The position numbers were made by a program, and so were the translations under genes. The notes beneath the pieces were generated by a model, which searched no databases, was not told where the DNA came from, and saw only the letters and a list, made by a program, of their open reading frames with translations. A stretch of 64,000 bases of DNA. Source: an uncultured Flavobacteriales bacterium (GTDB lineage Bacteria > Bacteroidota > Bacteroidia > AKYH767-A > 2013-40CM-41-45). Location: NCBI GenBank assembly GCA_964356415.1, contig CAYHHK010000001.1, positions 38,057-102,056 on the forward strand, written 5' to 3'. Shown here piece by piece: positions 1,499 to 62,704 of this stretch (within the stretch, counting starts at the first letter, position 1; each line of letters begins with the position of its first letter).

Positions 1499-1513
1499 GC
1501 TTGGTAAAAAGAT

Positions 1514-2644: not shown

Positions 2645-2704
2645 TTACTTTTCAGAGGCATTTTTAATATTCAATCTTTATATTATGTATTGTATAATTC
2701 AATA

Positions 2705-3103: not shown

Positions 3104-3106
3104 TTC

Positions 3107-6902: not shown

Positions 6903-7049
6903 TTTAGGTCCTCTCGTTAATACAAATCTTTTTCCCGGTGGAATAATGTAATGCAAAAAGTTTTATAATGATGAGTGATGTTTTATTCATTCGTAGTTGC
7001 CCCTATCTATGTTCATATTTACTCAATGCGCTTTCTTGATAGTGAAATA

Positions 7050-8522: not shown

Positions 8523-9473
8523 TCATTTGTGGGTATCAGATTTTAGTAGCTTTTCAAAACTTCTTTTCATAAAAACACCAATCATTTCTTTGCGGTATGT
8601 GCGCGAATAAATATCGTTATCAATAATTCGCGGCATTTTTATCGCCCTAAGAATTAATTTATCTTTTTCTTCCAAGTTTCCTGATATTACAACAGGCTTT
8701 GGATCAACTCCACCGATTACAATATTTATTTTTCCGGATGCACTGATGGATACAGCGGTTGTTAATGAGGTGAAATCAATACTTTCTCTCAGACGCAATT
8801 TCATAAACACACATTTGTTTTCTTCGATTTGCGGGAGGAGAATACTTTTAATGATGGAGGTTGCAGAAAGATTTCTTGGCGTTAACCCGTCACCGGTATA
8901 AATATCTTCCAACTTTATTTTCTCTTCACCTTTTTCACTTTCAATGAGGAGTTCGGCATTGTAAGCAATCAGTACAGGAGCAGTGTCAGAAACAAATCTG
9001 GAAAAGCACTTTTTTTTTCCGCCCGTTGCGATGCAGATATCACCGTCACATTTCAAACAATAACCAACAGCTTGGCGCCACCATTCACTCTGATTGTAAA
9101 AACTGCACCTGTTCTCGCATAATATATTTCCACCGATGGTGGCTGTTTTTCTCAGCATTGGTGAAGCGGCAGCATGAGCCGCTTCACCTAACGAAGAAAA
9201 ATTAGCTGTGATAAATGAATTATTCTCTATCTCATTAAGTGTAACCAGGGAACCAATTCTGAAGTAATTGTCCTTTGATGTCGTGGTTTTTAATTCATTA
9301 ATTTCTGAAATATCAAGGATGCATACTGCGGTATCATTCCCTTGGAATTTATTTACCAGTATATCAGTGCCACCTGCAAGAAACCTGAAATTATTTGGGT
9401 ATTCTTTTGCAATACTAATTGCCTCAACGACTGATTTGGGCTTAAAATAAAGTGTTTCAGTTGTTACATCCAT
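8523..9473 (-). CDS. FAD-binding subunit of a xanthine-dehydrogenase-family molybdoenzyme (CoxM/XdhB/HcrB-like) with a Cys-rich insertion
   Basis: 316 aa. It has the FAD-binding FLAGGTDIL motif plus the unusual insert [44 protein letters not shown] (Cys at 119, 123, 139, 142, 147 and 156). Confidence 0.85.
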
Positions 9474-9505: not shown

Positions 9506-12298
9506 TCATTTTTCATTCCTTTCATATTGACCTTTAAGCTGTGTAAGTATATCCTCCGGCAGGATAGGCAATTTGGTAATCCGAACGCCAACGGCATCAT
9601 AAACTGCATTTGCAATTGCAGGTATTACAGGATGTAAGGCACCTTCACCGCATTCTTTTGCACCAAATGGTCCTTCGGGGTCATTTGTTTCTATAATATT
9701 GGTAACGATATCAGGTGTATCGAGTGAAGTCGGAATTTTATAGTCGAGAAAATTGTTATTTACGATGAGGCCTTTGTAATATTTCATTTGTTCACTCATT
9801 GCCTGTCCAATTCCCATGTGCCACGAACCCTCCAGTTGCCCTTCAACCGCAAGGGGATTAATTGCCTTGCCACAATCATGTGCGCCCCATACTTTAAGTA
9901 TTTTAACATGGCCGGTTTCCGTATCCACTTTCACTTCTGCTACGCAGGCACCAAAGGAGTAGGAGGGACTCAAACCTGCTCCGGCTCCTTTGAAATCACC
10001 ACCCAGTTTTGGAGAGATATATTTTCCGCTGATAGTGACTGCTCCTCGTTTTGAAGTGAGTATATCAATTGCTTCCAGCCAGCTTAAATTAAGTTTTTTA
10101 TCGTTGCTAAAAATCCTTTCATTGGCCAGATTTAATTCACTAACAGCAATGCCATTTTGCAATGAAACAGATTCAAGGATTTCTTTTCTCAGATTTTCTG
10201 CAGCATTTTTTGCAGCATTTCCTGCCATGAATGTGACCCTGCTTGAGTAGCTTCCCAAATCAACCGGAGTTAAAAGTGTATCACCGGCCAGAACAAATAT
10301 TTTATCCATGGAAAGACTCAAAACTTCTGATACAATCATTGCAAGCATTGTATCGCTTCCTTGGCCGATATCACTTGCACCGCTGGTGATCAATACCCTT
10401 CCATCAAAATCAACTTTCAAGTGAACTGTTGATTGGGGTAATTCATTCCAGATGATTGGCAATGCACTTCCGCTGATAAAAAAACCACATGCTACACCAA
10501 GACCGTGGCCATGCTCTAGTTTGCCATGACGATTTTTCCAGTCACTTTGTTCGGCAACTTTCATCAGAGATTCGCGACTGCCATTTGAAGTTATTCTGTA
10601 TTCGCCAACTGTAAGTGTGTGGGGAGTTAAAAAATTTTTGATTCTTATTTCTACCGGATCAATTTTCAGTTTATGTGCGACATCATCAATAAGACTTTCT
10701 GTCGCAAACCGGGAATTCACAGCACCATGTCCGCGCATGGCACCGCATTGCGGCTTGTTGGTATAAACACGAAAAGTTTTAAATCCGAAATTGTCCAATT
10801 TGTAAGGTGCCTGCAGCAACACTCCGTTATAATAAGAAGTAACGACACCAAAACTTCCATATGCACCTCCATCAATGGCGATGTCAGCGTCCAAAACATT
10901 AAATGTTCCGTCATTTTTTACGCCTAATTGCAACGTCATTCGTGACGGGTGACGACCGTGATTACTAATGAACACTTCTTCGCGTGTGAATCGGATCTTA
11001 ACCGGTTTTCCGGTTTTGCGGGCAAGATGGGAAATGATCATTTCATGTGGAAAAGGATCACTCTTCCCGCCGAACCCGCCACCAACATAGGGTTTGATAA
11101 CGCGCACCCTGCTCAGTGGAACTTCCATCACTTTCGCCAGGGCCCTGTGAAGGTAATGTGGAACCTGGGTAGCGGTTATGATAGTCAATCCGTTCTCATC
11201 CCAGTAGGCAGTGGCTGCATGGGGTTCAGTGAATGCATGCGTCACCCCTTCAAATTCGAATGACATTTTTGAAACAATGTCTGATTCTTCCAGCCCTTTT
11301 TGCTGATCACCAAAACGCAACTCAGCTTTCTTGTGGACGTTGTTATTGAACTTTACGTGCCCATGTATTTTTTCATGGACTCCGACATCATTAAGCGATT
11401 CATCAATGGAGAGGAATTCTTTGATTGGTTTATAGGTTACCTTAATGCATTTCAGGGCTTCTATGGCAATGTCTTCGGTATCGGCTGCAACAGCAGCAAC
11501 TACTTCACCGATGTACCGTACTTTGTCAATTGCCATTGCGGTTTCATCATTCGAAATCGGAAGTACGCCGAATTTTACGGGTAGTTCTTTCCCTGTAATT
11601 ATTGCGCGTACACCGGGTATTTTTTCAGCCTCACTTGTATTAATGCTCTCTATTTTTGCATGAGGCAGGATACTGCGGAGAAATTTTGCATGCAGTGAAT
11701 TATTAATTCTAATGTCATCAGCATACGCTGCTGAACCACTTACTTTTTTGTTGGCTTCGATATAAGGCCTCCCGACACCGACTGTTTTGAATGTTGAATT
11801 ACTGATGCTGGCGGTTTCGGTTTTTGGATTTTGTCTATCATTAGCATATTCAGAAACCGCTTCGATGATTTTTTTGTATCCTGTGCATCGGCAAACATTT
11901 CCCGATAGCGACTCCTTTATTTCATCGATTGAAGGATTCGGGTTTTTATTTACAAAGTCAAGGGCCGTAATAACCATCCCGGGTGTGCAGAAACCACATT
12001 GAACTGCACCCTTCTCCACAAACTTATCCTGAAGTTTATGCAATGTGGCATGGGTTGAAATACCTTCAATGGTGGTTATGCTTGCTCCTTCAAAGCGCAA
12101 AGCCGGTGTAATGCAGCTTAATACGGGCTTATTATTTACCAATACAGTACAGGCACCGCAACTTCCCTGTTCGCAGCCGATTTTTGTACCTGTCAAGCCA
12201 GCTTTTTCACGAATGACCGTTGAAAGCATTTCATGAGCATTAACAACAAGATCGAAATGCTTTCCATTGATAATATAAGAAACAAGCTTATTGTTCAT
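9506..12298 (-). CDS. fused [2Fe-2S] ferredoxin-type small subunit and molybdopterin-binding large subunit of a xanthine dehydrogenase/aldehyde oxidase-family molybdenum hydroxylase
   Basis: 930 aa. The N-terminus carries CEQGSCGAC...C and CGFCTPGM...CRCTGY, the two [2Fe-2S] motifs, followed by the Mo-binding aldehyde-oxidase/XDH domains. The ATG at 12298 overlaps the ferredoxin stop (ATGA). Confidence 0.9.
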   Translation of the reverse strand: MNNKLVSYIINGKHFDLVVNAHEMLSTVIREKAGLTGTKIGCEQGSCGACTVLVNNKPVLSCITPALRFEGASITTIEGISTHATLHKLQDKFVEKGAVQCGFCTPGMVITALDFVNKNPNPSIDEIKESLSGNVCRCTGYKKIIEAVSEYANDRQNPKTETASISNSTFKTVGVGRPYIEANKKVSGSAAYADDIRINNSLHAKFLRSILPHAKIESINTSEAEKIPGVRAIITGKELPVKFGVLPISNDETAMAIDKVRYIGEVVAAVAADTEDIAIEALKCIKVTYKPIKEFLSIDESLNDVGVHEKIHGHVKFNNNVHKKAELRFGDQQKGLEESDIVSKMSFEFEGVTHAFTEPHAATAYWDENGLTIITATQVPHYLHRALAKVMEVPLSRVRVIKPYVGGGFGGKSDPFPHEMIISHLARKTGKPVKIRFTREEVFISNHGRHPSRMTLQLGVKNDGTFNVLDADIAIDGGAYGSFGVVTSYYNGVLLQAPYKLDNFGFKTFRVYTNKPQCGAMRGHGAVNSRFATESLIDDVAHKLKIDPVEIRIKNFLTPHTLTVGEYRITSNGSRESLMKVAEQSDWKNRHGKLEHGHGLGVACGFFISGSALPIIWNELPQSTVHLKVDFDGRVLITSGASDIGQGSDTMLAMIVSEVLSLSMDKIFVLAGDTLLTPVDLGSYSSRVTFMAGNAAKNAAENLRKEILESVSLQNGIAVSELNLANERIFSNDKKLNLSWLEAIDILTSKRGAVTISGKYISPKLGGDFKGAGAGLSPSYSFGACVAEVKVDTETGHVKILKVWGAHDCGKAINPLAVEGQLEGSWHMGIGQAMSEQMKYYKGLIVNNNFLDYKIPTSLDTPDIVTNIIETNDPEGPFGAKECGEGALHPVIPAIANAVYDAVGVRITKLPILPEDILTQLKGQYERNEK

Positions 12299-12528
12299 CT
12301 TGAGGTTCTTTCAACTTTAATAATTTTTGCAGGACAAATTATTGCTGCTTTTAAATTCAATTTGTATTCATCTTCATCGACATCCATTCTATATACTCCC
12401 CCTTTTTCTTTGCTCCCGATTAAGTTGCATTTTCCGTCTTTTCTTGATATTCGCCACCTGCTTTTGTTTGCTTCTGCGCATGCATTGCAGCCAATACACT
12501 TGCTGCGATGAAAGTATATCCTAACCAT
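12295..12528 (-). CDS. small [4Fe-4S] (single-cluster-type) ferredoxin
   Basis: 77 aa with CIGCNAC ... CP motifs. Its start overlaps the U32 stop by 1 nt (TAATG) and its stop overlaps the downstream start (ATGA). Confidence 0.75.
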   Translation of the reverse strand: MVRIYFHRSKCIGCNACAEANKSRWRISRKDGKCNLIGSKEKGGVYRMDVDEDEYKLNLKAAIICPAKIIKVERTSR

Positions 12529-13769
12529 TATGCATCAATGATTTTATACAATTTATCTGAAGGACGAATTTTGGCTTTTACCGGAAATGTAACAACATCA
12601 CCCTTTGAACATCTTTGGATGCTGTTGTCATTAACCCGAAATTCGTGCACATTTTCATTTATGACTCCTGTAGTAGGGCCACTGATTAGTATTTCATCTC
12701 CCACGTCAAGTGTTTGAGATTCAATTTTAAATTCTCCGATTCCGATTTTGTCAAAATACTTCACGACTTTTCCAATGTATATTTTTTTTTGGGTTGCCTT
12801 TGAGCCGTATTCATTATTCCATTCGCCAATTTTCTTTCCAAGATAATATCCGTCCCAGAAACCACGATTGAATACTGTAGATAATTTTATTTTCCATTGA
12901 TCTGCCTTCTCTTTTGAATAGGATTTTTCGTAAAATGAATCAATGGCTTCACGATAACATTTGGTAGTGGTGTAAACATAGTCTTCGCTCCTTCCTCTGC
13001 CTTCAATTTTTAAAACACAAACACCTGTATCAAGTATTTTGTCTATGAAATCAATGGTGCATAGGTCTTTAGCTGACATAATATATTCATTGTCAATTTC
13101 CAGTTCGGTTCCGGATTCTTTATCTATTACAACATAATTGCGTCTGCAATTCTGTATGCAGGCCCCGCGATTGGCAGACGAAAAATTGGTATGGAGACTC
13201 AGGTAACATTTGCCTGAAACGGCCATACACAATGCGCCATGTGCGAAAATTTCTATACGCACAGGTTTTCCGGAGGGCCCAACAATATTTTTCCGTTTGA
13301 TTTCACGCACAATGGATTTCACCTGATCAAGCGTGAGCTCCCGTGCCAGTACCATCACATCTGCAAACTGAGCGTAGAATTCTACAGTCTCAATATTTGT
13401 GATGTTGGCTTGTGTTGAAACATGAACGGGCATACCTGATTTTTTTGCAAAACTCATTGCGGCATGATCTGATGCAATAATCGCATTTATACCACAAGAT
13501 TTAGCCTTGTCAATTATGGTACGCATCAATACTAAATCGTGGTCGTACAGAATTGTGTTAAGTGTGATATATGTTTTGATTTTATTTTCCTTCGCGATTG
13601 AAGAAATATTTTCTAAATCTTCTAAAGTAAAATTGATGCTTGAACGCGCGCGCATATTCAGTTGCTCAACACCAAAATAAATAGCATTGCAGCCTGCTTG
13701 AATTGCGGCCATGAAGGATTCCCACGAACCGCAAGGAGACAAAAGTTCTATTTTGTGGTTCTTAACCAT
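12528..13769 (-). CDS. peptidase U32 family protein (TrhP/RlhA/UbiU-like, probable O2-independent Fe-S hydroxylase family)
   Basis: 413 aa with a conserved U32 core (MVKNHKIELLSPCGSWE...AGCNAIYFG...) and a C-terminal beta-barrel domain. ATG at 13769. Confidence 0.8.
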   Translation of the reverse strand: MVKNHKIELLSPCGSWESFMAAIQAGCNAIYFGVEQLNMRARSSINFTLEDLENISSIAKENKIKTYITLNTILYDHDLVLMRTIIDKAKSCGINAIIASDHAAMSFAKKSGMPVHVSTQANITNIETVEFYAQFADVMVLARELTLDQVKSIVREIKRKNIVGPSGKPVRIEIFAHGALCMAVSGKCYLSLHTNFSSANRGACIQNCRRNYVVIDKESGTELEIDNEYIMSAKDLCTIDFIDKILDTGVCVLKIEGRGRSEDYVYTTTKCYREAIDSFYEKSYSKEKADQWKIKLSTVFNRGFWDGYYLGKKIGEWNNEYGSKATQKKIYIGKVVKYFDKIGIGEFKIESQTLDVGDEILISGPTTGVINENVHEFRVNDNSIQRCSKGDVVTFPVKAKIRPSDKLYKIIDA

Positions 13770-45162: not shown

Positions 45163-45769
45163 GGGTAAAATATTTCCTGTATTCCTCTTTTGTATTGATG
45201 TTTGCGTGTATGTTGCTGTCGTTTGTTTTCAACTGCTCAAAAGGATATTTCTCTAGGATAGCCCTTAGATTGGTTTCCGGCTGTGTTGCTTTTTTGATGT
45301 CCTGTAAAATTTCAGCTGACACCAATACAGGGTGCCCATGTTTGTTATTGTTTTCCGGAACTACATATTTCCCTACCAAAAGTCTCTTCATCATTTGTTC
45401 AAGGAGTGCAGTGGTTGTAAAAGGATTGTCAATGTTCTGAATAAAGGCACTGTTTTTTGTATTGATTGCATTTACTCCAAGTTTTACACTAAAAAATCTG
45501 CCGTCTTCAGGATGTTCATTGATTATAGTGGTAATATTCGTTTTATTCTTAAGCGGTTTGATCAATTCTTTTGCCTTCTTCGCGGTTTCAGTATTTAAGA
45601 CGATCACAATGTCCGGAATATTTGCATCAATATAAACCATTGTCAGTCTTTCAAGAAACGAAATGGATGAATTAAATTTCAGGAAACATTTTGGACTACC
45701 GAAGCGTTCCGATTTGCCTGCTGAGAGTATGATTGCAGAAACAAAGCCGCTGCCGGGTTGTTTATTCAT
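45146..45769 (-). CDS. mocA: MobA-like NTP transferase, MocA-type molybdenum cofactor cytidylyltransferase candidate
   Basis: AIILSAGKSERFGSPK nucleotidyltransferase motif. Adjacency to xdhC suggests MCD-cofactor synthesis for the XDH-family enzyme. Confidence 0.65.
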   Translation of the reverse strand: MNKQPGSGFVSAIILSAGKSERFGSPKCFLKFNSSISFLERLTMVYIDANIPDIVIVLNTETAKKAKELIKPLKNKTNITTIINEHPEDGRFFSVKLGVNAINTKNSAFIQNIDNPFTTTALLEQMMKRLLVGKYVVPENNNKHGHPVLVSAEILQDIKKATQPETNLRAILEKYPFEQLKTNDSNIHANINTKEEYRKYFTHDPIH

Positions 45770-47772
45770 GTTCCTTTATATTCAACATTTCTGCCAAGAG
45801 AACTAAGCCCAATCAAGGCATCTTTGGAAATAAAGATGTTTTTTAAATCATCCAATTCTGAAATATTAAGATCACAACCATTAATCAGTTTTTCAGAAAC
45901 ATATAGGGCAAGAGGAGCATTCCCTTTGACCTTATTGATAATTCTTTCTGCATCTTCTTTGTCGAGATGATCAAGGCTGTATTCCAGGTGGAGCAGGTGG
46001 TCAAGTGAATTGGCCTCGAAAAATGTTTTTATAGCAAGACATCGCTCTTCAATATTCTTAACGCCCAACGGTATGGAATCAATGGCCATCTCTCCCGATA
46101 AAATTTTAGGAATATCTTCTTTCTGAATGATGCTGTCGATAAGACCGATTTCAGAAGCATGGGTTGCAGTTACTTTTTTTCCTGTATATATCAGATACTT
46201 CGCGAGCCCTTTGCCGACTCTTCTTGCTGTGCGTTTGGCACCACCCAGTCCTGGATAGATTCCGATGCCTGTTTCCGGAAATGCCAGTTTGGCGCCCTGA
46301 ACGGAGAGTATGAGATCGGCACACAATGCAAGTTCTAATCCACCGCCAAGCGCCATTCCATTTAATATTACCACAACTTTCTTTTTTGATTTGTCAATTT
46401 TTTCAAAAAGTTGCTGCCCGAAACTTGTGAAGTCAACAATTCTGTCAACTGAATGATTCTTTATGTTGTTTACGAAGAAATTGATATCTGCTCCTGCTAC
46501 AAAAGCTTTTCCTGTACCTGTGATAAAAATGGTTTTGACGGAGGAATAATTTTCTGCCTGCGAGAATTTCTCATTCAATTGATTTATTACTTCTTCATTC
46601 AAGGCATTCAGTTCTTCAGGTCGGTTTATTGTTATGATGGCTATGTCATCTTTATTTTCCAGAAGGACATAATCCATATGCCAGGAAGAAGAGGATACGA
46701 TGGGGATAGCTTCATTGTAGTGTCTTGCATAATTATTCACCAGACGCTTTACTTCTTCTTCTCCGGTTCTTTTCATTAAATCTACGGGACCATATTTCCA
46801 ACGAAGGCCGATTTTGGCACCCTTGTTTAAATCTACTGCAGAGCATACTCCGTCGTTAAGAATCTGAGTGCAGATAAAAAATACACAACCAAGCAGCCGT
46901 TCATTGATTACTTTGTTTGAGACTGGATTCAGTTCTGCTGAATTTAGCTCCGCAATTTTCCAGTTTTCTTTTTTTGCTGCAAGCTGTTCGAGCATGGGTG
47001 CAATTTTGTAGGATGGTCCAAAAAACTCAAGTGTTCGCTGGGCATGCATTGCAATGGAAACTCCGGTAGCATTCATCAATGCGAAAGGCCCCATTCCGAT
47101 TTTGAAAATTTTCATGCAGGCAGAATCAATACTTTCAATTGTTCCAATGTTTTCAGACAATAGCTTTACGGATTCATTCAGCCATGGAACAAAAAAACGA
47201 TTCACCGCAAATCCATAAACGTCTTTGCAGATAATTGCATCCTTACCCGATAGCATACAGAATGTTTTTGCATTCTCTATTGTTGTTGCTGAAGTTTGGG
47301 TTCCGGGAATAATTTCAACGAGGCGGTTTTTTGCTGCGTGATAAAAATAATGCAGGCCGATAAACCGTTCAGGATGTTTCACTGTGGCAGAAAGTTCAGA
47401 TACCGAAAACGAAGAAGTGTTTGTTGCAATGATCGTTTCTTCAGGTACAATTTCTGAAAGCGCTTTAAACAGATCGCTTTTTGCCTTGAAATCTTCGAAT
47501 ATAGCTTCAATGATAATATTGCAGATTTTTAATTCCTGCAGGTCAGCTGTTCCTTTAAGATTGGATAAGGAGTTAATAACTTCCTCCTCTTTAAAAATAT
47601 TTTTTGCCACCCCTTCGTTCAGCATCGTTTTGATACCGCCCAGGCCTTTCTCTACAAACTTCATTTCCTTGTCGGCAAGAATAACTGTAAAGCCTTCCTG
47701 AACAAATTTTTGAGCCAGGGCAGAGCCCATTGTTCCTGCCCCAATTACGCCGACAGTTTTGATATTTTTCAT
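45766..47772 (-). CDS. bifunctional 3-hydroxyacyl-CoA dehydrogenase (N-terminal) / enoyl-CoA hydratase (C-terminal)
   Basis: 668 aa. The N-terminus carries VGVIGAGTMGSALAQ (HADH NAD site) and the C-terminus has a crotonase fold. Its stop overlaps the mocA start (ATGA). Confidence 0.85.
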   Translation of the reverse strand: MKNIKTVGVIGAGTMGSALAQKFVQEGFTVILADKEMKFVEKGLGGIKTMLNEGVAKNIFKEEEVINSLSNLKGTADLQELKICNIIIEAIFEDFKAKSDLFKALSEIVPEETIIATNTSSFSVSELSATVKHPERFIGLHYFYHAAKNRLVEIIPGTQTSATTIENAKTFCMLSGKDAIICKDVYGFAVNRFFVPWLNESVKLLSENIGTIESIDSACMKIFKIGMGPFALMNATGVSIAMHAQRTLEFFGPSYKIAPMLEQLAAKKENWKIAELNSAELNPVSNKVINERLLGCVFFICTQILNDGVCSAVDLNKGAKIGLRWKYGPVDLMKRTGEEEVKRLVNNYARHYNEAIPIVSSSSWHMDYVLLENKDDIAIITINRPEELNALNEEVINQLNEKFSQAENYSSVKTIFITGTGKAFVAGADINFFVNNIKNHSVDRIVDFTSFGQQLFEKIDKSKKKVVVILNGMALGGGLELALCADLILSVQGAKLAFPETGIGIYPGLGGAKRTARRVGKGLAKYLIYTGKKVTATHASEIGLIDSIIQKEDIPKILSGEMAIDSIPLGVKNIEERCLAIKTFFEANSLDHLLHLEYSLDHLDKEDAERIINKVKGNAPLALYVSEKLINGCDLNISELDDLKNIFISKDALIGLSSLGRNVEYKGT

Positions 47773-48557
47773 TTTGAAAGTGCTTTATTATTTTCCCAGA
47801 CGGGTTTTCTTTTCTCTAAAAATGAATTGATGCCTTCATTCGCGTCATGGGTTTCCATCAGTTGCCTTACATACATGCTTTCAAGTTGCTGAAGAAAATT
47901 GGTTAAGACATGATTGAATTTAGCCCGTGATGCTCTTACTGCAAAGCGGAGTGAGGTGGCGCTTTTTGGAATAATTTGATCTGCAATCCATTTTTCAATA
48001 CCTGTATCCATTGTGGCCTTGTCATCAAACAGTTCATTCACCAATCCTATTTGTCTGGCTTCTTCTGCATGAAAGGTCCTTCCGGTAAGAAGTATTTCTT
48101 CTGCCCTTGCCAAGCCGATTTTTTCAGGAAGGATAACTGAAGCAGGAGGGGGGAAGACCCCAAGTACAATTTCGGGCTGCCCGAATCTGGCTGTTTTGTC
48201 GGCAAAAATAAAATTGCACATAATCGCAAGTTCCATTCCGCCACCAAGACATTGTCCTGAAACTTTTGCCAGAGTTGGGATGGACAGATCTCTTAGCGTA
48301 TAAAACAATGCATGAAAATTCTGAAGCATGGTTGAAGCAAATTCTTTTTTATGTTCTTCTACACTTGCCCCAAAGGAAAAATGCTTCCCTGCGCCTTCAA
48401 GAATAATCAGCTTAACCTGGGAATTAGCACGAAATGTATTTAATACAGACTGCAATTCTTCAATCATCACGTGGTCAAGTACATTTCCTTTGCCGTCATC
48501 AAGAATCACATTGATAACAGTATCATTATGGCTGTAAATAATTTTAACTTTTTCCAT
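47769..48557 (-). CDS. enoyl-CoA hydratase/isomerase (crotonase) family; dienoyl-CoA hydratase (Dch)-like candidate
   Basis: 262 aa with crotonase oxyanion-hole segments (LEGAGKHFSFGAS; CLGGGMELA). Function inferred from size and context with had/oah-like genes. Confidence 0.8.
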   Translation of the reverse strand: MEKVKIIYSHNDTVINVILDDGKGNVLDHVMIEELQSVLNTFRANSQVKLIILEGAGKHFSFGASVEEHKKEFASTMLQNFHALFYTLRDLSIPTLAKVSGQCLGGGMELAIMCNFIFADKTARFGQPEIVLGVFPPPASVILPEKIGLARAEEILLTGRTFHAEEARQIGLVNELFDDKATMDTGIEKWIADQIIPKSATSLRFAVRASRAKFNHVLTNFLQQLESMYVRQLMETHDANEGINSFLEKRKPVWENNKALSK

Positions 48558-48559
48558 TG

Positions 48560-49660
48560 TCAGGTATTAACTTTTTGGTATTGTGGCGAGATCGTTCTGT
48601 GCATTTCATCATTCCATTCATTTCCCTGCGCCAGGAGTTGACGCAGTTTGATGAAATCTACTTCACGGTCCTCTTTTGGTCCGTCATTAAAGGCTTTGAA
48701 TCCAGCCTTCGCTTCTGTCATCATATTTAGTGCAAGCCACTCGCGGCTGCCTTCCTTGTTTTTATCCCAGTGTTCGAGTTTGAATTTGCGAACTTCACTG
48801 ATGGTTTTTGTCATGCAGTTGGGGAATGTGTAAAGTAGTTTGGTGATCAGGTTATTTACCGCCTTGTCCAGCATCGATAAATCTGTTTCGGCAGTTGCTA
48901 AAATCTCTTTTGCTTTTTTCAATTCATCGCCTGATTTGGAAGTTCCGAAAATGACACGTCCGAATTCATTAGTGATTTTATCTGTTACCACCATTGGATT
49001 TGGAGTAAACTGACCATTCACTTTTAGCACAGGAACTATTTCTGTAATAACCCCAAAATAATATGCCTGATGTGCGGTCCACGGTTCACAAAGCGTGAGA
49101 GACATCATTGCCCGCTCAACGCCTACAAAAAGCGGAAGGAAATCAGTGGCGCCTCCAATGGGTGCACTCCCGTGTTTTGGACCTGCCTGGCCGAATCTTG
49201 CCATGTCACTGGCTATGCTGAAGTCGCAGGCCATTCCTATTTCCTGGCCACCGCCAATACGCATTCCGTTAACACGATTGATTACAGGTTTTTCGCATTT
49301 CAATATTGCACTTACCATGTCATTGAACAACCGCATATATTGTGAGTACTCCTGCGGGTTTCCGGCATAATACTCGGCATACTCTTTTGTGTTTCCGCCT
49401 GTACAAAATGCTTTGTCACCAACTGCAGTAAAAACAACTGCAACTACACTCCTGTCGTTTGATGCTTCTCCAAATGCCAGAATGATTTCTTTTACTGCCG
49501 AAGTCGTGTATGAATTATATTGTTTTGGATTATTAAGATAAATCCAGGCATTGTATAACCCATCTATGGGATTGCCATTTTTGTCAAGGCAGTTCTTTTT
49601 CTCAAAAATGATTTCTTTATATACTGCTGTGACGATGTTGTGATTTTTTAGGTTGCTCAT
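48560..49660 (-). CDS. crotonase-superfamily protein with a C-terminal extension; 6-oxocyclohex-1-ene-1-carbonyl-CoA hydrolase (Oah/BamA)-like candidate
   Basis: ~366 aa from the ATG at 49660 (MSNLKNH...). Crotonase core (AFCTGGNTKEY; GMRIGGGQEIGMACDF) plus a ~100 aa C-terminal extension. The longer track ORF would overlap the upstream T9SS gene. Confidence 0.7.
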   Translation of the reverse strand: MSNLKNHNIVTAVYKEIIFEKKNCLDKNGNPIDGLYNAWIYLNNPKQYNSYTTSAVKEIILAFGEASNDRSVVAVVFTAVGDKAFCTGGNTKEYAEYYAGNPQEYSQYMRLFNDMVSAILKCEKPVINRVNGMRIGGGQEIGMACDFSIASDMARFGQAGPKHGSAPIGGATDFLPLFVGVERAMMSLTLCEPWTAHQAYYFGVITEIVPVLKVNGQFTPNPMVVTDKITNEFGRVIFGTSKSGDELKKAKEILATAETDLSMLDKAVNNLITKLLYTFPNCMTKTISEVRKFKLEHWDKNKEGSREWLALNMMTEAKAGFKAFNDGPKEDREVDFIKLRQLLAQGNEWNDEMHRTISPQYQKVNT

Positions 49661-49664
49661 TGTT

Positions 49665-50852
49665 CTAGTTTGTAATTTGTAATTTAAATAAATATTGTTT
49701 TTGGCCTCTCGTTGCTGAAAGTAAATACAACCCCGGTGATAATTCAGAAACATCAATTTGCTTGGAATTCTTTGCTGTCACAACAGGGATTCCTCCAAAT
49801 GAATAAATTTTAATATCTGAGATGCAGTTGTCGGGAGAGTTGATAAATACACAGTTTGTGGATGGGTTCGGATAAATACTTAATTGTTCATTCTGATTTT
49901 CATTTATTGCATCAAGTATGCACCAGGTGATTCCGGAAGATATTGTTCCAAAATTGAAGTCAATGAATGGTGTGGATATTGGCGGGGTTGAGTCGCAAAA
50001 ATCAAAATCTCCCTTCATCCAGCCCCAATTGACCGAGCTGTCGGACACTTGAAAGCTTCCTGTTGCTGTTCCTTTAACGGTATCTGCATTATACCAGCTG
50101 TCGTTCACAATTATTCTTCCGTTGTTATCAAGCGTTGCATTGTGTTGAACTGAATCAGCATTCAGCAGGCTTTTATATAGGATGAAATACCCTGAAGAAA
50201 GGTTCTTAAATATTTCAGTATTCCAGGAACTGTGCAAACAAGTAATGCTATCTGAATTGGTAAAGGTTCCAAGATTTGTAAGATCGGTAAATGTGAGGGT
50301 ATTATTATTTGTGTATTCCCCGGTATTTGTAAATTGATTGTATGTGCAAATCCCATTATTTGTAAAAGTTCCGCCGGTAGTGATACTGTCAATATCCAGG
50401 AAACTGCCGTCGTTGATTATAGCGCCTGTGCTGTATAGACTGTCAATGTTTTGAATGGTTCCTGTATTGGTGAAGTTCACATAGCTCATCAGCGAACGGG
50501 CTGTAAGTGTCCCACTATTCGAAAATGAGCCTGCCTGTACAAACAAGTAGCGTATATCAAGTGTACCATGATTTGTCAGTGTTCCTCCATTTACCAGTAT
50601 GTCCCGTGAAGAATTGTTTTCTATTAGTGATCCTCCTGCATTAATGGTGATTCCTCCGGAAGGGAGATACCAGCCGGTGTCAAGTGCGACAGCGTGGTTG
50701 ATGGTAACTGTAAAGCCGGGCAATGGTATGCAGGTACAACTCCATGTCAACGGGTTCATCCAATTTCCATTTTGAACAGAAGTTGCATTCTGCGAAACAC
50801 CGGAAAAACAAATGGAGAATAAAGCCAGAAGGGTGCTAAGAAATTTGCGCAT
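49665..50852 (-). CDS. secreted beta-helix-like repeat protein with a T9SS C-terminal sorting domain, embedded in the catabolic operon
   Basis: Signal peptide MRKFLSTLLALFSICFSGVSQ, many FTNxGT-type repeats, and C-terminal SIYPNPSTNCVFIN...GLYLLS...LFKLQI. Confidence 0.75.
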   Translation of the reverse strand: MRKFLSTLLALFSICFSGVSQNATSVQNGNWMNPLTWSCTCIPLPGFTVTINHAVALDTGWYLPSGGITINAGGSLIENNSSRDILVNGGTLTNHGTLDIRYLFVQAGSFSNSGTLTARSLMSYVNFTNTGTIQNIDSLYSTGAIINDGSFLDIDSITTGGTFTNNGICTYNQFTNTGEYTNNNTLTFTDLTNLGTFTNSDSITCLHSSWNTEIFKNLSSGYFILYKSLLNADSVQHNATLDNNGRIIVNDSWYNADTVKGTATGSFQVSDSSVNWGWMKGDFDFCDSTPPISTPFIDFNFGTISSGITWCILDAINENQNEQLSIYPNPSTNCVFINSPDNCISDIKIYSFGGIPVVTAKNSKQIDVSELSPGLYLLSATRGQKQYLFKLQITN

Positions 50853-50858
50853 GAAGGT

Positions 50859-51968
50859 TTATTTGAAATCGGGAATAAGAACTGATCGTTTTGAATATTT
50901 ATGCTCAAGAGTATTTCTAAATACTTCATTTATTTTCGACATAGGAAAAGTTTGCACAAACTGTGATATGTTCAGTTTGCCATTGGATATCAGGTCTAAA
51001 ACCTCGGGATATAGTTCTGCCCTGCATCCCCATGTGCCGATGAGTTTGGCGTCATATGCCATCAGGTTGCTTAGCCGGACTTCTGTTTTATCCATTGTGA
51101 AGCCAACAATTGAAAGCGTTGAAGCGTACGTGATAAGGTTAAAAGCCAGATCCTGACCTGCTTTTGTTCCGCTGAATTCAAATATTTTCCATCTGAATTT
51201 TGGCGCATTGATTTCCTTAGCAAGCGCTTTTACTTTTTCTTTGATTGTTTTCTGATCAAGGCTTTTGATATTCAAAACCGCATCTATGCCATTTTCTTTT
51301 GCAGTGGTCAGCTTCGCATCATTGATATCCAGCGCAATTACTTTAGCTCCGAATATTTTTGCGATCAGTGCTCCATAAACTCCTACGCCTCCAACACCGA
51401 TAACAATGGCAAGATCACCCGGTTCCAGTTCTGATTTTTTAATGACCTGATAAGGTGTTGAAATTGCATCAGCAATAACCGCGAGATGTTCGAGTGGATA
51501 TTTATTCAAAACACTTTTTGGAACTTCACATAGAAATTTAGAGGGTACTATTATATGTGAGGAAAATCCTCCCTGGAAATCGTTTCCGGGCATTAATTGA
51601 TTTCTGCAAATATTGCTTCTCCCATTTTTACAGAACTCGCAATCACCACAAGGCAACACGGCAGGAATGATTACTGCTTTATCAAGCCATTTATTATCAC
51701 CGGTAATTACTGTCCCGCTGATCTCATGACCTAACGTCAGAGGAAGTGCATGCTTCGTCTGTACTCCTGCATGCCAAAAGCTGATGTCTGTATGACACAC
51801 ACCGCATCCTGCAATTTTCACAATGACCTCTCCGTCTTTTAATACCGGTAGTGGGTTTTCAATAAGTTGAAATTCCTTGTTGAGTTCAACCATTTGCCAT
51901 TGATGCATTTTTTCGGTTGAAGTAACTTTTGCAGAAGCAAGCTTGATTTTATCAAATGTTTCAGGCAT
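50859..51968 (-). CDS. zinc-dependent medium-chain alcohol dehydrogenase family; 6-hydroxycyclohex-1-ene-1-carbonyl-CoA dehydrogenase (Had/BamQ)-like candidate
   Basis: 369 aa with a catalytic Zn motif (GCGVCHTD), a structural Zn Cys4 (CGDCEFCKNGRSNIC) and a GxGxxG Rossmann motif (IGVGGVGVYG). Confidence 0.8.
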   Translation of the reverse strand: MPETFDKIKLASAKVTSTEKMHQWQMVELNKEFQLIENPLPVLKDGEVIVKIAGCGVCHTDISFWHAGVQTKHALPLTLGHEISGTVITGDNKWLDKAVIIPAVLPCGDCEFCKNGRSNICRNQLMPGNDFQGGFSSHIIVPSKFLCEVPKSVLNKYPLEHLAVIADAISTPYQVIKKSELEPGDLAIVIGVGGVGVYGALIAKIFGAKVIALDINDAKLTTAKENGIDAVLNIKSLDQKTIKEKVKALAKEINAPKFRWKIFEFSGTKAGQDLAFNLITYASTLSIVGFTMDKTEVRLSNLMAYDAKLIGTWGCRAELYPEVLDLISNGKLNISQFVQTFPMSKINEVFRNTLEHKYSKRSVLIPDFK

Positions 51969-51970
51969 AA

Positions 51971-53233
51971 CTATAGGTTTTTGTTTTCAAAAAGGATAGC
52001 TGTTCCCTGTCCGCCGCCAATGCATGCAGATGCGATCCCATATTTTACTTTTCTGCGTATCATTTCTTTAGAGATGGTGAGAGACAACCGCAATCCTGTG
52101 GCGGCAAGCGGATGCCCTATTGCAATGGCTCCTCCGTTTACATTCAGTTTGGTTCTGTCAATTCCCAGTTCCTTTTCGCAACCGATTACCTGCGCCGAGA
52201 ATGCTTCGTTAATTTCAAGCAGACCAATATCGGAGATATTCAATCCAGTCATTTCAAGCAAAAGTCTGATTGCCGGAACCGGGCCCAATCCCATGTATTT
52301 CGGATCGATGCCACAACTTGCGCCTCCGATTATTTTTGATATTGGTTTTAAATTCTTTTGTGAAACAGTTTGCAAATTTGCAATAACTGCAGCGGCTGCG
52401 CCATCAACAATTCCACTGCAATTTCCTGCCGTAAGAACTCCCACTTTGTCAAACACTGTAGGCAGTTTACCCAGCGCATCCAGCGTTGTGGCACGGATAT
52501 GTTCATCAATTGAAAAGGAGCTTGTTCCTTTTGGGAGAAAAGCTTTTCTTGATTTAAGGCCTTCAATATTAAACGTGGCGGACTGCAACGATGCGATTTC
52601 CTCAGAGAAGATTTTATTTGTTGTGGCATCAATTGCTCTTTGAAAAGAGGTCATTGCATATTCATCGCAGTCATTTCTTGAGATATCATATTTCTTTGCA
52701 ACATTTTCGGCTGTATATCCCATCGGATATCCGGCGGCAGTATCGTCCAGAGCTTCCCAAAGCATATCCTTAAATACAGGCCTGCCTAAGGGATATCCCA
52801 TTCTGTTTCCAAAACTCACAGTAGGGGAGAGTGACATATTTTCTGTGCCAACACAGAGAACTGTGTCTGCTTTTCCCAGAGTGATTTGTTCTGCACCTGT
52901 AATAATTGTTTCAAAGCCTGATCCGCAAATCCTTTGCACCATTAATGCCGGAACTTCAGCCGGGATTCCGCTAAAGAGAGATATGTGGCGTGGAAGAAAA
53001 TAGGAGTCTGTTGAACTTTGTCCGATATTGGCTGCAATCACCTGATCAATTTCATTAGGTTTCACTCCTGATTTTTGCAGCGTGGATATTGCGGCAAAAA
53101 TCCCTAAATCGGTAGGAGAGATTTGGGAAAGCGAACCACAGTATTTTCCAAAAGGTGTCCTTGTTCCGTCGACGAGATAAATGTCGTCGAATATTATTCC
53201 TATTCCTTTATTTATATGATGGTAGGCTTTCAC
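51971..53233 (-). CDS. acetyl-CoA C-acyltransferase (degradative thiolase)
   Basis: RTPFGKY, catalytic Cys (VQRICGSGFE), NVNGGAIAIGHPLAATG and C-terminal CIGGGQG. Apparent GTG start at 53233 overlaps the upstream stop (GTGA). Confidence 0.85.
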   Translation of the reverse strand: MKAYHHINKGIGIIFDDIYLVDGTRTPFGKYCGSLSQISPTDLGIFAAISTLQKSGVKPNEIDQVIAANIGQSSTDSYFLPRHISLFSGIPAEVPALMVQRICGSGFETIITGAEQITLGKADTVLCVGTENMSLSPTVSFGNRMGYPLGRPVFKDMLWEALDDTAAGYPMGYTAENVAKKYDISRNDCDEYAMTSFQRAIDATTNKIFSEEIASLQSATFNIEGLKSRKAFLPKGTSSFSIDEHIRATTLDALGKLPTVFDKVGVLTAGNCSGIVDGAAAAVIANLQTVSQKNLKPISKIIGGASCGIDPKYMGLGPVPAIRLLLEMTGLNISDIGLLEINEAFSAQVIGCEKELGIDRTKLNVNGGAIAIGHPLAATGLRLSLTISKEMIRRKVKYGIASACIGGGQGTAILFENKNL

Positions 53234-56400: not shown

Positions 56401-58149
56401 TCAGGTTGCAAATATTCTTCCAACAGTATTTTGAAGTTCATCCAGACGGATGATATAAATTTCTTCTTCAACAGGGTTTTCGTCTCCGTATAAATTTTCC
56501 AGATGCGCTTTGTATGCGCTCACCACATTTCGCGGAGCTACTTTCATGGATGGAGTCAATGTTCCTTTCTCCAGAGAAAGCTCATCATCGATAATCATAG
56601 CAGCTCTTATTTGTGCAAACTTTTGTCCGATGCCACAATTTGCATCATGTAAGCAACCGTGTAAGCATTTGCTGAGTTCATTCAGGTCGCGGGGACAGAA
56701 GCAACCTTCCTCAGGAGAAATGTTGTAGTCAGGATGATTTAAAAGTTTTTTATTTGGGAATAATATGGCAACAGGATAGTCTTGTCCGCTGCCTACTACC
56801 ATGGCGAATGAGATGTAGTGGCATTTCATCTCGATGAGTTTTTCAAGGTCTGACGGAACAACTTTTTCTCCGTTTGACAATTTAAAGATGCGGTCTTTGC
56901 GGGTGATAAGTTTCAGACCATTTTCTGTAATTTCTCCAATATCACCGGTGCAAAACCAGCCATCATCAGTAAATATTCCTGAATTCGCTTCGTCATTTTT
57001 ATAATACCCTTTCATTACGTTGGGACCTTTCACCTGAATTTCTCCGTCATCTGCGAGTCTGATGCTTACTCCGGGCAAAGGACTTCCTACAATACCATGA
57101 TGGCGTTTCTTATTTGGATTTGTGAGCGTACAGCATGGGGAAGTCTCAGTGAGACCCCATCCTTCTATGACTGGTACATGTCTTTTTTCAAATTCGTCGG
57201 AGAGATTTTTAGGAAGCGAAGCCGCTGCAGTGAAAATGAATTTCAATTGGGGATGAAAAAAGAGTTCTTCTGCTTCCTGATCATTTCTTGTAAGATCAAT
57301 AAGTGACTGGTAAACTTTTGGAACGCTGAAAAAGACTGTTGGCTGAATAATTTTCCAGTTTTCCATGAGCACTTTAGGATCTTTTCCATAGCCGGATTCA
57401 AGAGAGATGGTAGCGCCATTGTAAAGTGCCGTGAATAATTCAAAAATACCTCCGAAACTGTGATGCCACGGGAGATAGGAAAGGAAGCGATCAGTGGATG
57501 TTATTTTCAAGACCTTGGATAGCCCTGCTTGTTGTGATAAAATATTTTCATGTGTAAGTTGAACACATTTGGGAATACCCATCGTTCCTGATGTATACAT
57601 GTTCAGACAAATTTCATCAGGTGAAGCATTAGGATCAATTGAAAAACTTGTATCAGAATTAGTTTTTAGCAACTCATCAAAATGGTGCTGATTGTCAAAA
57701 TATTTTTTTTCAATGTTGTCAAAAACAAAAAGATGCCTGACATGAATGTTATTACTGAGTCTGCCTAATTGCAGTTCTCCGGCTACGCTAAGGAATTTTG
57801 CATCAGAATGATTGATGAGTAGTTCTGCCGTTTCCTGATGAAAATAGGCGAAGATGGGAACACTGATTCCACCTGAAACCATCACAGCAAGTTCAAGTTC
57901 AAGCATTTCAAGGCGATTCGGAGAATAAATTACCATCTTATCCCCGGCGATAAAGCCGAATCGCTTGAGGTTAAAAGCAATCTTTAAAATGTCATTGTAG
58001 AAATTGTGCCAGGTGATGCCTTCGAAAATTCCGTTTCTCTTCTCTTGAAAAACAATATTATCCCGAAACGCCCTTACATTGTGATGCAATAACATAGAAA
58101 TGTTAGGAATCATTTTATCCGGCTTAAATTCAGATTCAAGAGTTTTCAT
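56401..58149 (-). CDS. AMP-forming acyl-CoA synthetase/ligase
   Basis: 582 aa with the AMP-binding motif YTSGTMGIPKCV and C-terminal ligase motifs. ATG at 58149. Confidence 0.85.
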   Translation of the reverse strand: MKTLESEFKPDKMIPNISMLLHHNVRAFRDNIVFQEKRNGIFEGITWHNFYNDILKIAFNLKRFGFIAGDKMVIYSPNRLEMLELELAVMVSGGISVPIFAYFHQETAELLINHSDAKFLSVAGELQLGRLSNNIHVRHLFVFDNIEKKYFDNQHHFDELLKTNSDTSFSIDPNASPDEICLNMYTSGTMGIPKCVQLTHENILSQQAGLSKVLKITSTDRFLSYLPWHHSFGGIFELFTALYNGATISLESGYGKDPKVLMENWKIIQPTVFFSVPKVYQSLIDLTRNDQEAEELFFHPQLKFIFTAAASLPKNLSDEFEKRHVPVIEGWGLTETSPCCTLTNPNKKRHHGIVGSPLPGVSIRLADDGEIQVKGPNVMKGYYKNDEANSGIFTDDGWFCTGDIGEITENGLKLITRKDRIFKLSNGEKVVPSDLEKLIEMKCHYISFAMVVGSGQDYPVAILFPNKKLLNHPDYNISPEEGCFCPRDLNELSKCLHGCLHDANCGIGQKFAQIRAAMIIDDELSLEKGTLTPSMKVAPRNVVSAYKAHLENLYGDENPVEEEIYIIRLDELQNTVGRIFAT

Positions 58150-58160
58150 TTTGATTATTA

Positions 58161-59021: not shown

Positions 59022-59106
59022 TATTGTTCGCTTATCTTCTGTTAGAAAATCATTAGGTGGCTTTTTTGGGAAAGTACAATATTGTGATTAAATTAATATA
59101 TGATAT

Positions 59107-59910: not shown

Positions 59911-59913
59911 TGG

Positions 59914-61323: not shown

Positions 61324-61347
61324 TTATTGTTTCCTTTTTAAAAGTGT

Positions 61348-62649: not shown

Positions 62650-62704
62650 TTTGTAGTTTTTTCTGTGACTTAATATTTGTGAGATATCATCTTGATATTA
62701 TTAT

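Follow-up and report, generated by a model that had tools for sequence, protein, structure and literature searches.

[quoted passage not shown] HcrCAB is a cytoplasmic enzyme of the XO family with two [2Fe-2S] clusters, FAD and Mo-MCD, and it is encoded in a nitrate reducer together with the benzoyl-CoA reductase (BCR) BcrCBAD and with Dch, Had and Oah. To our knowledge, 4-HBCR activity has been biochemically characterised only in a few Proteobacteria. The donor of the enzyme is reduced ferredoxin and its beta subunit carries an extra 4Fe-4S loop (PMC12771579, PMC11760930).

Two further XO heterotrimers, PaoABC of E. coli (PDB 5G5G) and the aldehyde oxidase of Methylobacillus (5Y6Q), have a four-cysteine insert with a [4Fe-4S] cluster at the same site of the fold of the FAD subunit. 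The loop of PaoB differs from that of the protein described below in length and cysteine spacing, and its second cysteine is not homologous to Cys147 of the latter. PaoABC is a Tat-exported, periplasmic aldehyde oxidoreductase which works oxidatively in spite of the [4Fe-4S] cluster in its FAD subunit (PMC13404670). Conversely, the urolithin C 9-dehydroxylase Ucd/Ucdh of Enterocloster is reductive without a [4Fe-4S] loop (PMC11760930, PMC12771579); its donor is NADH, its substrate is a free polyphenol and not a CoA thioester, and it is not connected with the degradation of benzoyl-CoA. In MOP of Desulfovibrio gigas (PDB 1SIJ/1VLB), an aldehyde oxidoreductase, a single polypeptide joins the 2x[2Fe-2S] and Mo domains, but MOP lacks both an FAD subunit and a [4Fe-4S] cluster.

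We analysed a stretch of 64,000 nucleotides from an uncultured Flavobacteriales bacterium (GCA_964356415.1, contig CAYHHK010000001.1, positions 38,057 to 102,056), here called the window. The features discussed are collected in the following table.

Table. Features of the window that are discussed in the text, with positions counted from its first nucleotide
Feature	Position	Strand	Remarks
HcrB-like FAD (beta) subunit with Cys-rich insert	8523..9473	-	316 aa; PF00941, E 2.4e-36
Roughly 40-residue insert in FAD subunit (aa 119-161)	8991..9119	-	predicted [4Fe-4S] ligands Cys123/139/147/156
Fused gamma-alpha subunit	9506..12298	-	930 aa; Pfam Fer2, Fer2_2, Ald_Xan_dh_C, MoCoBD_1, MoCoBD_2
2x[2Fe-2S] N-terminal domain of gamma-alpha (aa 1-155)	11834-12298		Cys42/47/50/62 and Cys101/104/136/138
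Mo-MCD domain of gamma-alpha (aa ~171-921)	9536-11788		
Single-cluster [4Fe-4S] ferredoxin	12295..12528	-	77 aa, CxxCxxC...CP; Fer4_15, 31.7 bits (above cut-off 22.4)
U32-family protein	12528..13769	-	413 aa; PF01136; abuts ferredoxin gene
SDR	43584-44321	-	FabG/BbsD-like; best PDB match BbsD
XdhC Moco chaperone	44311-45162	-	
MocA-like cytidylyltransferase	45146-45769	-	
Lower benzoyl-CoA pathway block	45766..53233	-	includes a 3HCDH/ECH fusion and, between Oah and Had, an unrelated T9SS protein
Dch	47769-48557	-	TIGR03189, 228 (below cut-off 292.5), yet best match
Oah	48560-49756	-	TIGR03200, 588 (above cut-off 464)
Had	50859-51968	-	TIGR03201, 453 (above cut-off 339)
Thiolase	51971-53233	-	
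Acyl-CoA ligase	56401-58149	-	resembles long-chain acyl-CoA ligases
BcrD	58161-59021	-	317 (cut-off 313); acyltransferase gene between BcrD and BcrA
BcrA	59914-61323	-	439 (cut-off 578 missed)
BcrB	61348-62649	-	692 (cut-off 487)
BcrC	62705-63868	-	456 (cut-off 421)

The cysteine-rich insert of the FAD subunit

The translated open reading frame of the FAD subunit has cysteines at positions 51, 119, 123, 139, 142, 147, 156 and 221 and thus all six (119 to 156) which the initial annotation had assigned to an insert. Residues 119-156 correspond exactly to 9006..9119 in the window. The claim that this segment is absent from ordinary CoxM/XdhB-type proteins is borne out by comparison with an insert-free set, the FAD subunits of nicotinate dehydrogenase, CoxM/CutM, quinoline oxidoreductase and 6-hydroxypseudooxynicotine dehydrogenase (3hrd_C, 1ffv_C, 1n5w_C, 7dqx_B, 1t3q_C). 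All these alignments break at about residue 118 and restart at about 160, and the ordinary FAD subunits therefore lack the roughly 40-residue insert. In proteins of the ordinary type FAD_binding_5 is contiguous with no insert after the GGN motif, and this is not what the FAD subunit shows.

Searched against the PDB, the FAD subunit finds Thauera HcrB (1rm6_B) as its top match, both as a single sequence with phmmer (E 3.7e-35) and as a profile (E 6e-52). HcrB has an insert of the same size with four cysteines, and the core of the loop is nearly identical (C...GYCLK). In the pairwise alignment C123, C139, C147 and C156 fall one-to-one on C122, C138, C146 and C155 of HcrB with the same 16/8/9 spacing; the HcrB residue numbers given in the initial annotation are those of the 1RM6_B sequence. 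The identity to HcrB amounts to about 55% in the loop and to 27% over the whole FAD subunit, and the low overall value counts against a 4-HBCR. The loop match far exceeds chance.

The four cysteines are invariant in all 120 close homologues, in all 140 full-length representatives of the 50%-identity clusters and at all 83 genomic loci; the exact 16/8/9 spacing is kept in 104 of the 140 representatives. A full-text literature search for the names of ligand or active-site residues of HcrB returned nothing relevant. That the four cysteines are the actual ligands is judged from their invariance, from the title of the structure paper and from secondary citations, and Cys123/139/147/156 are predicted ligands of a [4Fe-4S] cluster. 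The other two cysteines, which flank predicted ligands, behave differently. C119 and C142 are both kept in 120 of 120 close homologues and at 80 of the 83 loci, and the equivalent residues of HcrB are Gln118 and Tyr141, with Cys117 of HcrB being one position off. Both residues are a peculiarity of the Bacteroidota clade.

We also modelled the FAD subunit with AlphaFold2 on an alignment of 41 sequences in order to examine the geometry of the loop. Overall the predicted fold has high confidence (pTM 0.80) and Foldseek again places 1rm6_B as its top match. Residues 120-160, however, have a pLDDT of about 40, below 50, and the model is therefore uninformative on the cluster.

The HcrB-type loop family comprises 300 clusters at 50% identity (E <= 1e-30), and the same design with its predicted [4Fe-4S] loop occurs in at least 596 genomes at species level. 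Of these, the closest 80 come from uncultured Bacteroidota, apart from a few Ignavibacteria, Chlorobiota and Calditrichota. A neighbour-joining tree of the beta representatives was too noisy to position the clade and was not taken as evidence; the smallest clade that includes both the query and Thauera HcrB comprises 56 of the 140 sequences. The insert is real, but the annotation pipelines of JGI and NCBI have already given close relatives the name 4-hydroxybenzoyl-CoA reductase subunit beta.

The fused partner subunit and the family scores

All parts of an XO-family enzyme, Mo-pterin, FAD and 2x[2Fe-2S], are present, with gamma and alpha fused in contrast to HcrCAB; the fusion occurs at 78 of the 83 related loci. 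The eight cysteines of the N-terminal domain form two canonical [2Fe-2S] motifs. When aligned with HcrA and HcrC as proposed in the initial annotation, the fused protein indeed proves most similar to these two: residues 7-152 match 1rm6_C (E 1.3e-42), and the Mo domain matches 1rm6_A with 597 bits and 42% identity. With the 2Fe-2S domain removed no PDB sequence other than 1rm6_A reaches E 1e-80. MOP, which shares the fused arrangement, matches residues 9-706 with a total score of 351 bits. The motifs near the Mo (TQVP, GGGFG-x-(K/R)-(S/T), CGAMRGHG, GSYSSRVTFM and GPFGAKE) are common to HcrA and the fused protein. A twin-arginine (Tat) motif was sought in the gamma-alpha sequence and is absent, so that the enzyme, unlike PaoABC and like HcrCAB, should be cytoplasmic.

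The equivalog models of NCBIfam give a more reserved picture. The best match of the FAD subunit is TIGR03195 (beta) with 200 bits, the cut-off being 404.55; the gamma-alpha protein scores 828 bits with TIGR03194 (alpha; cut-off 994.55) and the gamma domain 167 with TIGR03193 (cut-off 257.8). All three parts are thus below their cut-offs, though 4-HBCR is still the best-scoring family for alpha and beta; the gamma domain has its best match in another family. For alpha the next family scores 568, a margin of 260 bits, which in another loop-bearing clade is only 99 bits. As a calibration of the equivalog cut-off, the score of Thauera HcrB is 551, and two representative clusters reach 467 and 434. 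The initial annotation had called the enzyme a 4-HBCR-like aryl dehydroxylase. The wording HBCR-like is justified; the step to 4-HBCR itself is one that we infer, with every part scoring below its cut-off.

Gene context in the window and among relatives

The genes that had been described as bcr-like turn out to be more than that. The genes at 56401..63868 include those of a complete class I, Thauera-type benzoyl-CoA reductase BcrCBAD, and the window holds Dch, Had and Oah in addition. Nar genes are also found in the window and the host can respire nitrate. A typical benzoate or 4-hydroxybenzoate-CoA ligase was not found in the window, which counts against assigning the enzyme as 4-HBCR. XdhC and the MocA-like protein both score below their own equivalog cut-offs; their presence is consistent with an MCD enzyme.

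At 62 of the related Bacteroidota loci the flank extends 9 kb or more upstream, and at 40 of these 62 the two Mo-enzyme genes lie no further than 10 kb from BCR or Dch/Had/Oah genes. The remaining 22 have no pathway gene within 10 kb, and this again counts against 4-HBCR. In related Bacteroidota MAGs the gamma-alpha and beta genes directly adjoin bcrCBAD or had-oah-dch. Two gene orders illustrate this: bcrDABC <> MocA-SDR-gamma/alpha-beta (locus L005) and thiolase-had-oah-dch-3HCDH/ECH-MocA-XdhC-SDR-gamma/alpha-beta (locus L006). In the relatives the gamma-alpha gene is directly preceded by SDR, XdhC and MocA-like genes; SDR is found directly upstream at 58 of 83 loci, XdhC at 44 of 83, and unbiased clustering of the neighbours recovers the MocA-like family at 45 loci. 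Directly downstream, a gene for a hemerythrin-domain protein is present at 45 of 79 loci. These operon partners set the Bacteroidota clade apart from HcrCAB; the conserved SDR and hemerythrin neighbours are not known to have a counterpart in 4-HBCR systems, which likewise speaks against the 4-HBCR assignment. At several loci genes for OFOR, PFOR or a 2[4Fe-4S] ferredoxin adjoin the Mo-enzyme genes, in keeping with a supply of ferredoxin, and a beta-eliminating lyase (tyrosine phenol-lyase/tryptophanase family) is nearby at 7 loci.

In the window itself, the stop of the 77-aa ferredoxin gene overlaps the gamma-alpha start by 4 bp and this is the sole ferredoxin-like open reading frame of the window. 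Its product may donate electrons to the enzyme or act as a partner of the adjacent U32 protein, for which the best NCBIfam matches, TrhP and UbiU, stay below their cut-offs. Ferredoxin and U32 occur together at 6 of the 83 related loci and the ferredoxin never without U32. The U32 protein is an accessory present in a minority of the relatives. A role of the ferredoxin as dedicated donor is doubtful, as it may serve the U32 protein instead. Two other neighbours were rejected as functional partners: the downstream TrpB-like PLP enzyme, seen at none of the 83 related loci, and the HyuA/HyuB-RidA-ACAD block, with HyuAB at one of the 83.

Proposed function and alternatives

We consider it probable that the enzyme in the window is the Bacteroidota counterpart of 4-hydroxybenzoyl-CoA reductase. 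The initial annotation had taken the cluster as the mark of an enzyme which runs in reverse. This is not diagnostic, since PaoABC is oxidative with the cluster and Ucdh reductive without it; a [4Fe-4S] cluster is neither necessary (Ucdh) nor sufficient (PaoB) for reductive chemistry. In the HcrB-type loop family only 4-HBCR has been characterised and the loop alone therefore leaves the substrate unfixed. Thus, support for a 4-HBCR-like enzyme comes mainly from gene context and not from the loop itself, and the strongest argument is the adjacency to the pathway genes in the relatives. In contrast to HcrCAB, all hosts are uncultured Bacteroidota MAGs and not Proteobacteria, and the activity in Bacteroidota is predicted. 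A literature search turned up no study describing a Bacteroidota 4-HBCR or class I BCR, and one for papers that link furoyl-CoA dehydrogenase to 4-HBCR found none.

It is possible, though rather doubtful, that the same architecture and a ferredoxin-driven reduction serve another aryl-CoA substrate, which is defunctionalised before the benzoyl-CoA reductase acts. Protocatechuyl-CoA, 4-hydroxy-3-methyl- or methoxy-benzoyl-CoA and, by reductive deamination, 4-aminobenzoyl-CoA would be candidates. The scores below the equivalog cut-offs would fit such a substrate, as would the distinct clade with its fused gamma-alpha protein and extra cysteines and the beta-eliminating lyase near the genes at 7 loci; the frequent FabG/BbsD-like SDR hints at an additional CoA-ester step foreign to known hcr operons. 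On the other hand alpha is clearly closest to HcrA and shares the motifs surrounding the Mo, 4-hydroxybenzoyl-CoA is the only established substrate of the family, and no sequence feature points positively to a different one.

More speculative, and in our view unlikely, is an adapted variant in which the pairs C119-x3-C123 and C139-x2-C142 together with the hemerythrin protein would act as a redox or O2 switch, or in protection or repair of the exposed [4Fe-4S] cluster. In this way Bacteroidota of freshwater and soil that are facultatively aerobic and respire nitrate could run an O2-sensitive aryl-CoA dehydroxylase driven by ferredoxin, whose substrates may be lignin-derived and different from 4-hydroxybenzoyl-CoA. 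If true, abundant uncultured Bacteroidota would be unrecognised anaerobic degraders of phenolic acids.

We regard it as improbable that the enzyme is an oxidative hydroxylase or aldehyde oxidoreductase similar to PaoABC, with the [4Fe-4S] cluster as the exit of electrons to ferredoxin or a respiratory acceptor and not as their entry. PaoB and the medium subunit of the Methylobacillus aldehyde oxidase do match through the loop region with about 97 bits, PaoABC demonstrates that such a cluster can serve an oxidation, and nitrate respiration would supply an electron sink. However, loop sequence and cysteine spacing are of the HcrB type and not of the PaoB type: the profile of the FAD subunit scores 97 bits with PaoB against 180 with HcrB, and the fused protein 288 with the PaoC model (cut-off 1180) against 828 with that of HcrA; the PaoA model gives 128 (cut-off 322). 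The lack of a Tat signal and the tight linkage to bcr and dch/had/oah in most relatives also disfavour an oxidative role. Finally, structural disulfides or a Zn site in place of a cubane, the insert being a docking or structural element only, would suit the low confidence of the modelled loop and the presence of more cysteines than a cubane needs, but this is very improbable, as exactly the four HcrB-equivalent cysteines are invariant throughout the family while the other two vary, and as disulfides are not expected in a cytoplasmic enzyme.

Sequence features, homology and gene linkage are observed here; for the 4-HBCR counterpart we infer binding of the cluster and the following direction of electron flow, donor and substrate. 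By analogy to the Thauera enzyme, a low-potential reduced ferredoxin would deliver electrons to the surface [4Fe-4S] cluster at Cys123/139/147/156. In some relatives the neighbouring 2-oxoacid:ferredoxin oxidoreductases could regenerate this ferredoxin, and in the window the 77-aa ferredoxin may be the donor. From the [4Fe-4S] cluster the electrons would pass to FAD, then through both [2Fe-2S] clusters in the N-terminal part of the fusion and finally to the Mo-molybdopterin cytosine dinucleotide. At the Mo centre a para-hydroxylated aryl-CoA, most likely 4-hydroxybenzoyl-CoA, would be reductively dehydroxylated to benzoyl-CoA. The ATP-dependent BcrCBAD and Dch/Had/Oah could then dearomatise and open the ring in the nitrate-respiring host.

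In summary, a known anaerobic enzyme, one which dehydroxylates phenolic acids before ring breakdown, appears to be widespread in Bacteroidota in the version described here. The genes of this version are tied to those of a class I benzoyl-CoA reductase, in the window also to nitrate respiration. The gamma-alpha fusion makes it a compact two-gene expression target for the question of how an XO-family enzyme is driven reductively, which is topical since the discovery of the urolithin dehydroxylases. If the enzyme is active, a large group of Bacteroidota, abundant in the environment, which is usually seen as polysaccharide degraders could mineralise phenolic acids under anoxic conditions, namely lignin monomers and the products of tyrosine and p-cresol.

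The cysteine-rich loop of the FAD subunit

The translated FAD subunit has cysteines at positions 51, 119, 123, 139, 142, 147, 156 and 221. [quoted passage not shown] Among all PDB sequences the top match is indeed HcrB (1RM6_B; E = 3.7e-35 for the sequence alone, 6e-52 when a family profile is used), and both alignments place C123, C139, C147 and C156 on C122, C138, C146 and C155. Between these cysteines the two proteins closely resemble each other (25 residues compared). The FAD subunits of nicotinate dehydrogenase, CO dehydrogenases, quinoline oxidoreductase and 6-hydroxypseudooxynicotine dehydrogenase match up to about residue 118 and then from about residue 160. Since the alignments break and restart at these points, the insert is truly lacking in these ordinary members, as had been supposed.

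The four loop cysteines are invariant in 120 close homologues, in 83 genomic loci and in 140 full-length sequences, each representing one 50%-identity cluster of a family with about 300 such clusters (E <= 1e-30); 104 of these 140 show the 16/8/9 spacing. The cysteine pattern is confirmed as real and beyond chance. We predict that the four residues ligate a [4Fe-4S] cluster. The AF2 model of the subunit does not resolve the loop, so this assignment leans on alignment and invariance. Two additional cysteines, C119 and C142, occur in all 120 close homologues and in 80 of the 83 loci, whereas HcrB has Gln and Tyr at these places and both are replaced outside the Bacteroidota clade.

Features of the window; genes of interest lie on the minus strand
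Feature	Position	Strand	Remarks
HyuA/HyuB (caprolactamase-like), RidA, acyl-CoA dehydrogenase, divergent thiolase	299-6956	-	downstream of beta
TrpB-like PLP enzyme	7097-8464	-	58 bp downstream of beta; NF009057, 737 bits, well over cut-off
FAD (beta) subunit, 316 aa	8523..9473	-	FAD_binding_5 domain
Cys-rich loop	9006..9119	-	codons of residues 119-156
Gamma-alpha fusion, 930 aa	9506..12298	-	32 bases upstream of beta
Single-cluster ferredoxin, 77 aa	12295-12528	-	CxxCxxC...CP; Fer4_15 above threshold; 4-bp overlap, upstream of gamma-alpha
U32-family gene	12528-13769	-	abuts ferredoxin gene; best matches TrhP and UbiU, both under cut-off
MoaCB, MoaE, MoeB, MobA, MoeA, MoaA (Moco biosynthesis)	within 13770-43583		between U32 and SDR genes
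Two MFS transporters, NarGHI + ScdA-like gene, two cytochromes c, carbonic anhydrase	within 13770-43583
Hemerythrin-domain gene	22335-23045
ScdA-like hemerythrin-domain gene	34462-35184
SDR, XdhC, MocA-like cytidylyltransferase	43584-45769	-	beyond nitrate-respiration genes
3HCDH/ECH fusion, Dch, Oah, Had, thiolase	45766-53233	-	beyond MocA-like gene
T9SS-sorted protein	49665-50852	-	splits oah-had
HGD-D protein (440 aa) and 633-aa fusion	53230-56471	-	second BCR/2-hydroxyacyl-CoA-dehydratase-like pair
Acyl-CoA ligase, BcrD, BcrA, BcrB, BcrC	56401-63868	-
PlsC-type acyltransferase	59107-59910	-	splits bcrA-bcrD

The fused subunit and the place of the clade

The gamma-alpha protein joins an N-terminal 2x[2Fe-2S] domain, with the canonical eight cysteines at 42/47/50/62 and 101/104/136/138, to a molybdopterin domain recognized by domain search. 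This fusion is present in all 83 loci (78 intact, 5 cut by contig ends). The Mo domain aligns with HcrA (1RM6_A) over 746 residues at 42% identity (597 bits), and once the Fe-S domain is taken off no PDB sequence besides 1RM6_A is found at E 1e-80. Near the Mo site both share the motifs TQVP, GGGFG-x-K/R-S/T, CGAMRGHG, GSYSSRVTFM and GPFGAKE. Inspection of the gamma-alpha sequence found no twin-arginine signal; the enzyme is therefore predicted to be cytoplasmic.

The NCBIfam top matches are 4-HBCR alpha for the alpha part (828 bits, runner-up XdhA with 568) and 4-HBCR beta for the FAD subunit (200 bits), with all three parts under the curated equivalog cut-offs (994.55, 404.55 and 257.8 for alpha, beta and gamma). 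On the beta model Thauera HcrB scores 551, some unnamed clusters 434-467 and the Bacteroidota clade 200-212, so that the clade forms a separate and divergent branch within the HcrB-like family. Its alpha part is nearer to HcrA than that of another loop-bearing clade (635 versus 536 bits). More than 1,000 homologues of the FAD subunit were counted; the top 120 (57-70% identical to it) belong to Bacteroidota MAGs and to metagenomes.

Gene neighbourhood and distribution

The bcr-like genes of the initial annotation are present as BcrD/A/B/C, together with Dch, Oah and Had; BcrB, BcrC, BcrD, Oah and Had score above their NCBIfam equivalog cut-offs. Type IX secretion sorting domains in the window indicate a Bacteroidota organism. 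The acyltransferase and the T9SS-sorted protein are odd passengers in catabolic operons. The 633-aa fusion combines a ketopantoate-reductase-like (ApbA/PanE) domain with a BcrAD/activase ATPase and recurs in 9 of the 83 loci.

Scanning one genome per GTDB species, we found a relative in at least 596 genomes. The closest 80 are MAGs of Chitinophagales, Flavobacteriales, Saprospiraceae, Vicingaceae and similar groups, with a few Ignavibacteria, Chlorobiota and Calditrichaceae. The core operon kept among the 83 loci is MocA-XdhC-SDR-gamma/alpha-beta-hemerythrin, flanked recurrently either by divergent bcrCBAD or by upstream thiolase-had-oah-dch-3HCDH/ECH. BCR or Dch/Had/Oah genes lie within 10 kb in 40 of the 62 loci with at least 9 kb of upstream sequence. 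In some loci a 2-oxoacid:ferredoxin oxidoreductase, PFOR or 2[4Fe-4S] ferredoxin adjoins.

L007 and L010, whose gamma-alpha is 86% identical, are the closest relatives and read MocA-XdhC-SDR-U32-Fd-gamma/alpha-beta. In the window, SDR and U32 stand apart, with about 30 kb of genes for Moco synthesis and nitrate respiration between them. It appears that this block was inserted into the aromatic-catabolic operon; the Pfam matches for the block include no transposase or integrase domain. The U32 and ferredoxin genes are translationally coupled, inseparable in relatives, and adjoin the Mo enzyme in 6 of the 83 loci. TrhP and UbiU are O2-independent hydroxylases, and such a module flanking a dehydroxylase is curious.

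In 45 of the 79 loci with downstream sequence (for example L005:10944-11486 and L056:4702-5235), beta is followed in the same orientation by the gene of a hemerythrin-domain protein (PF01814, about 177 aa), which may protect or repair the O2-sensitive cluster. The window has its hemerythrin-domain genes elsewhere, none next to beta, and carries the TrpB-like gene at this position. The latter is probably unrelated to the enzyme, since it occurs in none of the 83 loci. HyuAB is found in one, L021, the only locus where the Hyu/RidA/ACAD/thiolase block follows beta (78-85% identity); the window's own downstream neighbours are thus not kept. Seven relatives have a beta-eliminating lyase of the tyrosine phenol-lyase/tryptophanase family nearby.

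Proposed reaction and its substrate

The best-supported reading, which we consider probable, is a ferredoxin-dependent reductive aryl-CoA dehydroxylase working like 4-HBCR. The loop-bound [4Fe-4S] cluster would be the entry point for electrons, which would travel by way of FAD and both [2Fe-2S] clusters to Mo-MCD; the class I reductase encoded in the window would then take over the benzoyl-CoA formed. Sequence match, domain composition, conservation and gene linkage are direct observations; binding of the cluster, direction of electron flow, donor and substrate are inferred.

The initial annotation took the extra cluster as what lets the enzyme run reductively. The HcrB-type loop stands, but a cluster as such is not diagnostic of direction: E. 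coli PaoABC has a [4Fe-4S] cluster in its FAD subunit and yet oxidises aldehydes (PMC13404670), while a reductive urolithin dehydroxylase works without the loop and with NADH as donor (PMC11760930, PMC12771579). The reductive assignment becomes credible through three features in combination: a loop of HcrB rather than PaoB type, a Mo subunit resembling HcrA, and the surrounding pathway genes.

The substrate is the main residual uncertainty. The equivalog cut-offs are missed, SDR and hemerythrin are conserved partners, and hardly any member of the large family that bears the loop has been characterised. To our knowledge, neither partner occurs in known hcr operons. In one sampled member of another loop-bearing clade (beta P0141) the locus L089:850-9942 reads CoA ligase (PaaK-like)-beta-gamma-alpha-TetR-TRAP transporter, which suggests that the HcrB-type loop family generally works on CoA esters of aromatic acids.

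This kind of enzyme is already known and pipelines name relatives accordingly; in JGI or NCBI several of the best 120 homologues carry the name '4-hydroxybenzoyl-CoA reductase subunit beta'. What is new is a divergent clade that is very widespread yet restricted to uncultured bacteria, together with its gamma-alpha fusion, its two extra near-invariant cysteines flanking ligand cysteines, and its hemerythrin partner. The implication is that many Bacteroidota would possess a complete anaerobic route for phenolic acids.
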